Positions 19,577-27,559 of a stretch of 64,000 bases of DNA are shown piece by piece. The notes beneath the pieces are model-generated. The model did no database searches and was not told the DNA's origin. It saw only the letters and a list, made by a program, of their open reading frames with translations. The translations under genes and the position numbers were made by a program. The stretch's first letter is position 1. Each line of letters opens with the position of its first letter. This DNA is from Thermoanaerobaculia bacterium (GTDB lineage Bacteria; Acidobacteriota; Thermoanaerobaculia; UBA5066): NCBI GenBank assembly GCA_963719225.1, contig CAVRAY010000002.1, positions 1-64,000 on the forward strand, read 5' to 3'.

Positions 19577-20042
19577 TTACTGGAAGTAGCCGGTGATGTC
19601 GAGGATCAGGTTCGTGGTGACCGCACCGCCGCAGCAGGTGCCGTAAGTCGCCGAAAGATCCGGGGTCGACACGGCAACGGGAATGATCGCTCCATTCGCG
19701 ATCGCCGGCTCGAAGGCGACGAAGTTCAGCGTCGAGACCAAGGGAACGGAGCCGCCCGTCGGCCAGAGGACCATGTGGCCATCGGCCTGCGGAGACACGA
19801 CCGTGGCATTCAGGGACACGGCCTTCGCGGTCCCCGGAACACCGCAGACTCCCTTGAGCGTGAAGGTCCGCAGGGTGCCCTGGGTCATCGGGCCGCCGAA
19901 CCCGCTGCGTGTGTCCGCCGCGCGGCACGGCGTGACCGCGAAGAACTGAAGGCCCTGCGCGTTCGCCGGCAGTGACCACGCTCCGGCGGCGAGAAAGGGC
20001 AAGGCGAGGAAAGCGCACGCACAAGACGACGAGTATCCTCAT
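19577..20042 (-). CDS. Small secreted protein made only of a signal peptide plus the PCRxxDTR...DITGYF domain; frameshift near 20015
   Basis: AGGAGG RBS (20049-20054) before ATG 20042. MRILVVLCV joins AFLALPFLAAGAWSLPANA in another frame; ends LILDITGYFQ*. Confidence 0.8.
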
Positions 20043-20048
20043 GGCAAG

Positions 20049-20080
20049 CCTCCTATAGGACGGTTAGTAGCGAGATTCTA
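20049..20080 (-). promoter_or_regulatory. Putative -10 box and strong Shine-Dalgarno for the stand-alone domain gene
   Basis: TAGAAT at 20080-20075 and AGGAGG at 20054-20049, in an AT-rich spacer. Confidence 0.55.
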
Positions 20081-23438: not shown

Positions 23439-25779
23439 GGACATCGACGACGAGGTTGAGAGTTGCGGCCGCGTTGTTCTTCACGACGATCCGGCCCGTG
23501 CCGTCCGAGGCGAGGAGAAGCTGGCAGTTGTTCGCACGCGTTTTTCCCGCCCGGAAGCTGATCGTGGACGCGTTCGGCGCAGTGGCGAGCGTCGCGGGAT
23601 AGATGACGATATCTCCCTGGGCTCCCGGGTTCACGACCGTCACGTTCGCCGAGACCACCTTGGCGTCCGACGGGATTCCGCAGGCCGGCGGAAGAGTGAA
23701 CGTGCGCTGAGAGCTTCCTCCGATCGGCGGTCCGCCGAGCGGGCCGCTCGCGCCGCGCGTGTCCAGGACGCGGCACGGCGTGAGCGGAAAGAGCCGTCCG
23801 CTCGAGAGGGTCGGAGCCGTGGCCGTGGGAGTTCGCGTGGGCGTGGGCGTCACCGTCGGCGTGCGCGTCGGCGTGCGCGTCGGCGTCGAGGTGGGTGTCC
23901 TGGTCGGCGTCGACCCGGGAGGAGGCGTCGGCGTGATCGTCGGCGTCCGTGTCATCGTCGGCGTGAAAGTGGGCGTCGAAGTGAACGTCGGCGTCCGCGT
24001 CGGCGTGAGCGTGGGCGTCCGCGTGGGCGTGGGCGTCGGAAGCGACGTCGTGGGCGTCAGGGTCGGCGTCGGGGTGTGCGTAGGAGTCCGCGTGGGAGTC
24101 CGCGTGGGCGTGAGCGTCGGAAGCGACGTCGTGGGCGTCCGCGTCGGCGTCAGGGTCGGCGTTGGGGTGTGCGTGGGAGTCCGCGTCGGCGTCGGGGTCG
24201 GCGTTGGGGTGTGCGTGGGAGTCGGCGTCGGGGTCGGGCTGCCTCCGTCCGAATATGCGTATCCGCCGACGAGCGTCCCGCCCTGGTTTCCGGAAACGAC
24301 GACCGAGACGTCGACGGAACCGGCCGTCCCGGCGGGGGTCACGGCCGTGAGCGTGTTCGCATTCACGACGACGACGGAGGTCGCGAGGACCCCCTTGATT
24401 CTGACCGTGGCGGGCGACGTGAAGCCCGAGCCCGTAATCGTGACGGGCGTTCCGCCCGCGGTCGGCCCGGAGGACGGCGAGATTCCCGAGACGACCGGCC
24501 CCGCCACGGTTCCGAAGCACGTGGCCCTGCTCTCGACGTAAGTCCGCATGCGAGAGAGGACGGCGGCGCTCGTCTCGCTGGGCACTCCGAGGTACATCTT
24601 GACGTTCGAGTAGCCGCCCGGCCTCAGGTGGCAGTAGCTCATGATCGTCCCCTTCTCGGGGGGGACGGGGCCGGCGCCGGTGCCGCCCGGGCACTGCGAT
24701 TCCGTCGAGCACGTGCAACAGCTGTCGACGACGGGCGAGTAGCAGTGGGTGTGCGGCGAACCGAAGTTGTGCCCGGTCTCGTGGGACGCGCACATGAAGT
24801 CCCAGTACGTCGTCGTGATGTTCGCGGGCGCTGTCCCGCTGAGGCTGCCGCTCACGGCGTAGCCAAAGCTGCTGCAGACCGCATTGAGGTACGCGATGCC
24901 CCCGCCGAGATTTCTGCCCGAGAGCATGTGGGCCAGGGAGCGCGGAACTGCATTGCGGTTCGTGTTCCAGTACGAAACGAACTCGCTGAGCGCAGCGCTC
25001 GAGGTCGTCGCGACCCAGGGGTCGCCCGGCGTCGTCCAGACCGAGAGGTAGTTCACCTGGAGCGTCACGAGGATGTCGCGCTGGTAGATCGCCGAGATCG
25101 CCGCGAAGAGGTCGCCTGCGTACTGCGCCACCGCGGTGACGGAAGATCCCTTCTTCGTGTAGAGCTCGTAGTCCGTCTCGATCGCGATCCCCGCGTGATA
25201 CATCACGGTCGAAAGAGCCCGGCGGCCTGCGAGAGCCGGCGCGGGGGGCTCCGGGGGCACCGGCAGCGATTCCGTGCCGCACGTGAACCACCGCGTTTCC
25301 GGGGGCATGTCCCCTTCGGGGTCGAACGACGAGACGAGCGTCCTCCCGTGCGGGCCGTCGCCGTAGACGTTCTTCTCGGGACCGATCGTCGCGACCCGCC
25401 CGCCGGTGACGATGAAGCCGCGCGTCGAGCGGCCGCGCGCGAGCATGACGAAGGACTCCGGTACGTCCGAGACGCCCCCCGTAAACCAGCGGTCCGGCGG
25501 AAGCGGCGCGCGCGAGTCGCCGTTCGGCCCATGCACGACGATCTGCGCATCCTCGGTGAAAGGCTCCACGCGGGTGAGCTCGAGGACGATCGCCGTTCCG
25601 TCGTCCAGCGACAGCGGCTCCATCGTGATGTGCGCCCCCGAGACGAGCGGACCGTCGAGGGCGCGGAAGGGCCTGTCGTCCACGACGTGTTCGGCTGCCG
25701 CGGGCAAGCCCGTCAGGAGAACGGCCACCAGCGCCAGCCGGGACCACAGGGCGCGGCCTCCGCTACTGGTAATAGCCAT
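23422..25779 (-). CDS. Secreted M12/reprolysin-like zinc metalloprotease + IPT/TIG domain + Pro/Thr linker + shared C-terminal domain
   Basis: [11 protein letters not shown], Met-turn [29 protein letters not shown], long PT tract, ends VVDVHGYFR*. Confidence 0.9.
23820..24240 (-). repeat. Low-complexity tandem repeats encoding a ~140-aa (PT)n linker
   Basis: [20 protein letters not shown]...; internal duplication of PTTSLPT; (gg[c/a]gt[c/g])n pattern in the DNA. Confidence 0.9.
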
Positions 25780-27559
25780 TCACGTCGGCCACGAAGTCGA
25801 GCGCGCCGCCGGAATTGTTCCGCGCCACGATGGCGCCGTCGAGCGCGAGGTAGATCTGTACCGAGTTCGCGCGCGTCCGGCCCGCGCGGAAGCTGATCGA
25901 GGAAGCCGTGGGGGCTGACATCCCGCCGGGAAAGACGAGGAGGCCCCCCTGCGCCGCGGGATTCACGACGGTGACGTTCGCGGAGACCGCGACGGCTCCG
26001 GAGGGAACGCCGCAGTTGCCGGGCACGATGAACGTCCGCTGCCCGGCGCCGCTGATGGCGGGGCCGCCGAGAGGCCCGGCCGCGTTGCGCGTGTCGAGGA
26101 GCCGGCAGGGCGTGAGCGGATGGAACGTCGTCGCGGCCGAGACGGGCGGCGGCGGCAATCCGCCGCCCCCGCCGCCCACGACGGCGAGGCAGCCGGCTGA
26201 GGCGCCCGTGTCGAGCGTCGAGCCCACGTACCGCGAGATCGTCTCCGGATGGAACGCGTACGTCGTCCCGGAGTTGCAGGGCCCGATGTGGCAGTAGCTC
26301 ATGATCGTGCCCGCTGCGCTGTAGCCGTTGATCATCAACGGAGCCGGGCAGGAAGTCGGGCCCGTGTAACAGGACTGCCCGTTGTAACAATGATCGGGCG
26401 CCGGGGCGGCGTAGCAGTGCGTGTGCGGCGAGCCGAGGTTGTGGCCGGTCTCGTGTCCGACGATGAGGGTGTCGCCGAGAAGGTACGGCGTCTTGAAGAG
26501 CTGGCAGAAGCTGTAGTCGTAGGAATCTCCGCAGACCGAGCTCGCAAGCCAGGCGATGCCGGAGGCGGAGTTGGTGCCCGGTTGCTTCCCGGACAACATC
26601 GCGGCGACGGAACGCGGATACGTCGCGTTCGAATAGGTCGCGTTCCAATAATTCGTGAACTCGGTGAGCTCCGGCCCGTCGGCGTTCCCATTGTCGTTCA
26701 CGTTGTAGGGATCCGCGACCGTCGAGACGCGGAGGAACGTCGTGCCCTGGAGCAGGCGCAAATTCAGGTCCCGCTCGTACATCACGTTGACCGACGCGAT
26801 GAGCTGCGCGATGTAGTTCGTCGCGTTCGTCGTGTTGTTCGACCAGTACGCCATGTACTCGTTGTCGGTGTCGACCGCGAGGACCCCGCTGTGGAGAGTG
26901 GACAGGGCGTTCGAGCGGCGCGGCGGGAGAGCCTCGGCGCTCCTTGTCGGAGCGGGCTCCCACGAAACCGCGGTCTCGACGGAGTCCTCCTGGCCGCATC
27001 TCCACGCGGCTCCTTCCGGGACGCGCGGCCGTGCCAGGAGATGCCGCTCTCTCGAGTCCGCGACGTCCCGCGCGATCTCGTGCGTTCCCTCCGGCCCGTG
27101 GACGAGGCCGGAGAACGTACGGGTGGCGGGATCGAGCGCGACGAAGAGGCGGTTGCCGGCGCCCTCCAGATCCGATCCCCAGAAGAAGACGAGCTTCGAG
27201 CGCGGCACTTCGGTCCGGAACGGACCCTCGACCCGATAGATGCGCGCGCCCTCGGCGTAGATCTCGTGGCGGACGAGATGGACCCTCCGGCGTACGCCCG
27301 GCGCGGTCGGGAACGCGTCGATCTCGCGTCCCTCTTCGGGTGCCAGCGCGAGGAGCGCGGGCGCGACTTTCTCGTCGACGGAGAAGAGCTCGGCGAGTCC
27401 GCGGTCGGCCGGCAGGTCGACGATCTGGCCGGGGCCTCCGGCCCGAATGGGATTTCCCCGGGCGCCCGCCGCGCCGGCAGGATCGGAAAAGACGAAGGCG
27501 GCGACCGTCAGGCCCGCCCAAATGACGACACGTCTTCCCATACGCCAAAGTGAAGTCAT
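25763..27559 (-). CDS. Secreted M12/reprolysin-like zinc metalloprotease + shared C-terminal domain
   Basis: [11 protein letters not shown] and GTIMSYCH; Gly/Pro linker; ends VADVNGYYQ*. Start at ATG 27559 or 27541. Confidence 0.9.

Follow-up and report, generated by a model that had tools for sequence, protein, structure and literature searches.

A C-terminal domain of secreted proteins that alternates with SLH among Thermoanaerobaculia genomes: a candidate envelope anchor

SLH domains fold as helical repeats, and PEP-CTERM and LPXTG signals bring together a motif, a membrane helix and a basic tail at the C terminus. The coupling of SLH to CsaB is presented as established in the accessible part of PMC6030368, and the accessible part of a survey (bioRxiv 10.1101/2021.05.31.446380) calls the SLH/CsaB pair practically absent from the lineage group considered here. 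We analyzed a stretch of 64,000 nucleotides from a Thermoanaerobaculia bacterium (the window: positions 1 to 64,000 of the forward strand of contig CAVRAY010000002.1, assembly GCA_963719225.1), in which a preliminary description made from the sequence alone had noticed a shared domain of about 120 amino acids (aa) at the end of six secreted proteins. This domain is found at the end of diverse secreted proteins; among genomes it alternates with SLH and with CsaB, and where orthologous cargo is encoded at the same locus, it takes the place of SLH. It probably has an anchoring or display role, and with less assurance we favor the more specific reading that it is a noncovalent envelope anchor, working as a trimer and fulfilling the role that belongs to SLH in sister genomes. 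In that capacity it works like SLH, but it is not an SLH member.

All six copies were recovered by a six-frame motif scan at the places first described (Table 1), and all six genes have a signal-peptide-like start as judged by eye. Passengers were present in five of the six proteins by Pfam (two M12, one FG-GAP, one GSDH, and one without a family), and the gene at 19577 has none. A hidden Markov model (HMM) built from the four intact window copies gave 35 rows in the genome scan, from which 32 full copies were obtained after two split copies were merged and one 37-residue fragment was set aside; the model recovered the other window copies and 26 further full copies with E values of 1e-8 to 1e-62, far beyond chance. 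Twenty-eight copies are C-terminal on cargo, two are solo, and two are N-terminal, preceding a DUF1800 domain and collagen repeats, respectively. The HMM count and position check proposed in the preliminary description therefore found a mostly terminal domain, and the claim that it is strictly terminal failed on the 2 N-terminal copies among the 32 and on tandem and internal blocks that occur elsewhere. Domain-bearing cargo of this genome includes Vgb-like and other propellers and beta-helix, M11, BACON, PKD, Ig-like, and DUF11 proteins (Pfam). The penultimate residue was aromatic in 29 of the 29 C-terminal copies listed, as first noted. The two cysteines described as invariant are so in 27 aligned copies of the genome but are absent from the consensus of 12 Cys-less actinobacterial-type repeats, and the TRAN[NS] motif stood in four of the six window copies, the GSDH protein having TRADN and the solo protein AIANG.

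Five of the 32 copies lie in C2 at 730-801 kb, a region that is an inverted copy of window 6-64 kb (67-84% identity), collinear with window 6294-63980 (L001), with a second smpB and a second lpxC. Given this duplication and a contamination of 6.21%, the region probably stems from a second organism whose sequence was joined to the contig, and the genome's own copy count is therefore nearer 27. Some copies have unusual surroundings. A fusion of signal peptide, domain, and DUF1800 is followed by DUF1501 (L016:1993-5438), and one Atlas triple cluster likewise carries DUF1501. A copy without its first 17 positions is fused to the start of a peptidase-like gene (L002:2566-3282), a possible deletion or misassembly. 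Collagen-like proteins have an N-terminal copy that follows the conserved motif NW-x-AP, and they retain it in SLH genomes as well (L012:2695-4312, L087, L088, and L091).

The relation to SLH was assessed in all 38 order-level genomes drawn, with the domain counted first and SLH (PF00395) second. SLH matches numbered 0 or 1 in 23 of the 24 genomes with at least 4 domain matches and 11 to 137 in 13 of the 14 genomes with at most 2; this genome (G000) had 0 PF00395 matches. The 23 domain-rich, SLH-poor genomes include G013, which is unpublished, and the exclusion holds without it. Among domain counts per genome in the larger sample, the highest values are read as at least 36. On an RpoB tree of 29 genomes (26 labeled; G015 had no RpoB match, and other genomes of the genus of the window organism were omitted), seven changes between domain and SLH were needed, at least six of them forced by well-supported branches, and the distribution of the modules was not more clustered than in shuffles (75/500). 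Sister genomes contrasted in G017/G076, G127/G088, and G057/G109, and G018 contrasted with its own family. Outside the order, 19 domain-positive genomes had at most two SLH matches. As an observation in its own right, the nearly complete genome G049 (2 contigs) shows expansion of neither module and gives no CsaB match; it may have a third anchor or have lost both.

The exchange extends to individual cargo proteins and to the locus. The M12 ortholog ended in SLH repeats in five of five SLH genomes, and the GSDH ortholog ended in SLH in G076 and G080. The domain cassette adjacent to smpB was present in five domain-type relatives (G001, G003, G007, G057, and G116); beside smpB, G065 has Wzm/Wzt and an M12-TIG protein that ends in SLH and is 60% identical to the window protein at 23422..25779, and G109 has Wzm/Wzt, an SLH gene, and csaB. 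A CsaB-like gene was found at an E value of 1e-33 or lower in 12 of the 13 SLH-rich genomes (including that of the query), as well as in G116 and G025, and in none of the 23 domain-only genomes, which gave two weak matches near 1e-4. The CsaB-like domain matched TIGR03609 (E value of 1e-54, under the cut-off as a fragment) and is fused to GT2/GT4 glycosyltransferase (GT) domains. The pyruvyltransferase family PF04230 had no match in G000, the glycan block of the window included. Genome-level exclusion and the swap on orthologous cargo thus support the anchoring or surface display, with its comparison to SLH, that was first proposed, and the SLH/CsaB side occurs in a lineage for which the survey (bioRxiv 10.1101/2021.05.31.446380), in the part accessible, called the pair practically absent. 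On the SLH side, the CsaB-like pyruvyltransferase forms the N terminus of multiglycosyltransferase proteins of 1300-1850 aa (L036:7661-11524 and L040:5683-11232). Beside csaB in G080 and G076 lie tandem arrays of 5-8 small secreted proteins (L040:11400-17450, L042:13000-19000, and L175), each with a divergent domain of about 200 aa and a single SLH repeat.

Structure prediction, which the preliminary description had suggested, modeled the solo protein as an all-beta jelly roll of eight strands with no helix and hence no membrane helix (predicted local distance difference test score [pLDDT], 94.6). Its best structural match was the Bd2133 fiber tip (PDB 8ond and 8ok3; Z scores of 9.8 and 9.7; root mean square deviation, 2.7; 107 residues aligned), which the accessible part of PMC10769870 describes as a trimeric beta-sandwich. 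The next unrelated structure followed at a Z score of 7.3, entries of carbohydrate-binding modules (CBMs) lay at background level (Z scores of 6-7), and C1q-like matches were weak; the fold common to the domain and the Bd2133 tip shows no function. Among the 150 best-scoring proteins, 123 carried three copies, 15 six, 2 nine, 9 five, and 1 four, and the tandem copies were joined by linkers with a median of 8 residues. The model of a tandem triple (predicted template modeling score [pTM], 0.92) superposed on Atlas triples from Acidobacteriota, Actinomycetota, and Dormiibacterota at template modeling (TM) scores of 0.88-0.93. On these predictions, the domain probably works as a trimer.

The solo protein belongs to a family with a length of about 154 aa (575 of 589 candidates), with 55-87% identity among the 120 matches listed, some of which are labeled Acidobacteriota or Thermoanaerobaculia. 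In 23 of 29 loci, many of them from one genus, a solo gene followed a cargo gene on the same strand at a distance of at most 350 bases; among these loci are three pairs in G127 and the one that holds the sole cargo copy of G076, an SLH genome. An automatic count had given 20 of 31; revision by eye dropped L097, L105, and L115 (cargo miscalled solo), took L072, L076, and L111, with overlapping starts, as adjacent, and added L075, a solo without upstream cargo. A quick tree built from 148 repeats placed 22 of the 24 solos in a group with repeats 2 and 3 from 18 fused triples (Shimodaira-Hasegawa-like approximate likelihood ratio test [SH-aLRT], 92); repeat 1 of the fused triples formed a separate clade (SH-aLRT, 97), and the solos of G127 arose separately inside the radiation of that genome (SH-aLRT, 100). 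The motif RANN is common to cargo copies and repeat 1, and ANG and PDL are common to solos and repeat 2; repeat 3 has only NG and DL. We consider the chances evenly balanced that the solo protein is an obligate partner of the cargo copy. Codon bias, tried as a sign of high solo expression, was uninformative, as ribosomal proteins themselves show none.

In keeping with the preliminary description, no characterized family could be assigned: local Pfam, NCBIfam, and PDB sequence searches gave no match. A single NCBIfam row on the domain, NF041519 (E value of 0.095, below the cut-off), was rejected as its family, as was a single match to a PDB sequence (E value of 0.38) as a relative. No match was found in phage records, and a viral fold library returned only generic jelly-roll and tail-fiber matches. 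The accession PF28696, given in the Atlas from Pfam 38.1, spans the aligned part of the best look-alike of the tandem triple (TM score of 0.93), the other nine rows having no family; it may be a recent Pfam model of the domain, as far as the accession without its name and annotation tells, and no paper naming this accession was found. No description of the domain was found in the literature, the search covering mostly nonsubscription papers without their supplements. The domain profile matched at least 36,768 protein clusters at 50% identity, so that the tag, described as lineage expanded, is expanded in the lineage and not restricted to it. Named carriers include Micromonospora and 19 Streptomyces plasmid records, and the domain therefore occurs in monoderms. 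Its distribution is patchy, with presence in 40 of 121 genomes of the Thermoanaerobaculia class sample and in 5 of 151 genomes of the Acidobacteriota phylum sample, all five from its own class with 29 candidates scored per genome; that sample does not show a wide spread in Acidobacteriota.

In the mechanism that we propose, cargo and solo proteins would leave via Sec, and the Cys pair would form a disulfide in the jelly roll. Three domains would pack into a trimer; tandem triples would supply all three units in one chain, and in the Thermoanaerobaculia lineage one copy on a cargo protein would join two solo subunits to complete the trimer, so that a large cargo need not homotrimerize. Once assembled, the trimer would attach to an envelope glycan that is not pyruvylated and so hold enzymes and adhesins on the cell. 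The neighboring GT and Wzm/Wzt genes would be the most likely source of this glycan, the Wzt/Wzm-like pair at 5312..6953 being the candidate exporter; that the product of these genes is the ligand is a tentative proposal. Folded cargo would be exported by a secretin system. G000 has LpxC and two secretins, O-antigen-ligase-family genes were present in five of five genomes tested, and LCP ligases were found in none of the six genomes searched; LpxC and the O-antigen-ligase-family genes, together with the lack of an LCP ligase match, suggest a glycan on the outer surface rather than on peptidoglycan. More speculatively, the domain may belong to a widespread envelope-anchoring system, the counterpart of SLH/CsaB, which in Thermoanaerobaculia would take the form of a heterotrimer of cargo and two free subunits and in Actinomycetota, Dormiibacterota, and some Acidobacteriota that of triples; whole lineages would exchange the module for SLH, together with the pyruvyl mark on their surface glycan, and would give dozens of secreted proteins a new tail at each switch.

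Several observations weigh against the anchor reading. G116 holds both modules (20 domain and 9 SLH matches) and G049 neither (1 domain and 0 SLH matches), G088 is SLH rich with no CsaB match, and cargo of the 22035..23444 type ended in SLH in two of the four SLH genomes read and had no tail in the other two. Outside the order, 10 of the 11 domain-negative genomes tested also had at most two SLH matches (61 further negatives were unscanned for SLH), and many relatives there accordingly use neither module. The collagen-like proteins of SLH genomes G019 and G095 retain their N-terminal copy, so that the domain can be kept by genomes that seem to lack the inferred ligand system. The GT4 gene at 7410-8441, beside the cluster, was tried as a ligand marker and tracked the domain only partially: it was present in 18 of 23 domain-only genomes and also in SLH-rich G065, and thus no ligand gene tracks perfectly. 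With regard to the trimer, the list of 150 proteins is ranked by score, which hides one- and two-copy proteins and would favor four and five copies, and the triple reached a TM score of 0.24 at best against single-chain C1q trimers (Foldseek). With regard to the partner, no solo was seen in G009 and G010 (4 and 10 domain matches; fragmented assemblies), the repeat tree used 126 columns, had a weak root, and included 18 triples picked by score pattern, and these triples likely stem from one fusion and therefore represent one Rosetta-stone event, not 18.

The main rival to the anchor reading is a coat in which the domain is a coassembly tag, the solo protein being the main subunit of a fiber or of a lattice like that of a surface (S) layer, with cargo built in via its domain and no direct glycan binding by cargo. 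This we consider unlikely. The conserved family of approximately 154-aa solos (575 matches) and the existence of a protein that consists only of a triple (P0186) would suit such a coat, replacement of SLH fits an S-layer role, and jelly-roll subunits of pili and capsids are among the fold matches; however, these pilus and capsid matches lie at background Z scores (6-7), a genome often has two or three solos that each follow a cargo gene, which fits a partner better than a single major subunit, and G009 and G010 show no solo. A pure trimerization or folding module without anchoring, like C1q or fiber-tip domains, appears improbable. It accords with the rule of three in copy numbers, with a trimeric fiber tip as the best fold match, and with the collagen-like proteins that bear an N-terminal copy in SLH genomes too, but it does not account for the exchange with SLH and CsaB that is seen genome wide on the same cargo, and single-chain triples would not oligomerize cargo.

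Still less probable is a CBM that aims enzymes at an outside substrate and not at the cell's own envelope. The jelly-roll fold is loosely shared with CBM families (Z scores of 6-7) and Pro/Thr-rich linkers are present, yet no CBM family matched, the cargo consists mostly of proteases, propellers, and Ig-like proteins rather than glycoside hydrolases, and the exclusion of SLH is unexplained. To a C-terminal secretion or sorting signal for a dedicated translocon or sortase, of the type of the C-terminal domain (CTD) of the type IX secretion system (T9SS) or of PEP-CTERM, we assign the lowest probability, and the sorting role raised in the preliminary description is not supported. In 28 of the 32 genome copies the domain does end the cargo at or beside the stop, with an aromatic penultimate residue, but N-terminal, internal, tandem, and solo copies exist, carriers include monoderm Streptomyces and Micromonospora, there is no membrane helix, and orthologous cargo exists with SLH or without a tail; cargo of the 22035..23444 type was without a terminal domain in three of the five genomes read, G049 among them. 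The terminal strand is structural, because the same strand ends internal repeats. A search for PF14349 (SprA, T9SS) gave no match in the genome, and none in control genomes either.

Features of the window are collected in Table 1. Frameshifts affect the GSDH, FG-GAP, and solo genes, the last with a single frameshift in its signal region, and are most likely assembly errors because the relatives are intact. The protein at 22035..23444 contains a secreted domain of about 330 aa (22431-23444) with no Pfam family and 58-63% identity in the five order-level genomes tested, where it is found with the domain studied here, with SLH, or with a Pro/Thr tail only. Between the GSDH and Wzt genes (3849-5053) lie a PIN-domain gene and a neighboring small gene without a family.

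Table 1. Positions of the domain-bearing genes and of neighboring features in the window
Feature	Position	Strand	Domain copy	Remarks
GSDH-family (pyrroloquinoline quinone [PQQ] sugar dehydrogenase-like) secreted protein	37..1691	+	1319-1691	Several frameshifts, one within the domain
Wzt/Wzm-like ABC glycan exporter pair	5312..6953	-		Scores below NCBIfam cut-offs
Glycan synthesis block	7410..19516			GT4, GT2-GT4-GT4, methyltransferase, GT2 fused to membrane domain, two more membrane glycosyltransferase-like genes, epimerase
Solo gene (signal peptide and one domain)	19577..20042	-	19577-19951	Final gene in the cluster, with an AGGAGG ribosome site directly upstream
FG-GAP propeller protein	20114..22038	-	20114-20498	Frameshifts near 20730, 20500, and 20145, the domain being affected as well
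Secreted protein without Pfam family	22035..23444	-	22035-22406	Orthologs 58-63% identical across the order
M12 metalloprotease with TIG domain and long Pro/Thr linker	23422..25779	-	23422-23796	
M12 metalloprotease with Gly/Pro linker	25763..27559	-	25763-26128	
smpB	27765..28283	-		Landmark; relatives have a domain cassette or an SLH cassette beside smpB

A family of at least 36,768 clusters for which no description was found in the literature, even if a recent Pfam model may already cover it, would, as a counterpart of SLH, define the surface proteome of abundant, mostly uncultured bacteria; the anchor would be testable in tractable Streptomyces and Micromonospora and could serve as a new tag for display. 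It is unusual in its own right that anchor, cargo tails, and glycan modification are swapped repeatedly and in an all-or-none manner. As in SLH/CsaB, a terminal module is found on diverse signal-peptide proteins, with a unit of three and with the same cargo and locus in sister genomes; unlike SLH, to which it has no sequence match, the domain is anticorrelated with SLH and CsaB, has an apparent free partner subunit, and is modeled as all beta with no helix, in contrast to the helical SLH fold. With the T9SS CTD, PEP-CTERM, and LPXTG it shares the principle that many secreted cargo proteins carry the same conserved element at the C terminus. It differs from the T9SS CTD in that curated CTD models (NCBIfam and Pfam) do not match it, its position is not fixed, its copies are not always single, and its carriers include monoderms; it differs from PEP-CTERM and LPXTG in that the last element of its proteins is a beta strand, DVxGY[FYW]x, with no membrane anchor or cleavage motif seen. 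The tip of the Bd2133 MAT fiber, the best fold match and, in the accessible part of its description, likewise a trimeric beta-sandwich at a protein end, shares 15% identity with the domain; Bd2133 is a single adhesin tip, whereas the domain is a mobile module on dozens of unrelated proteins.

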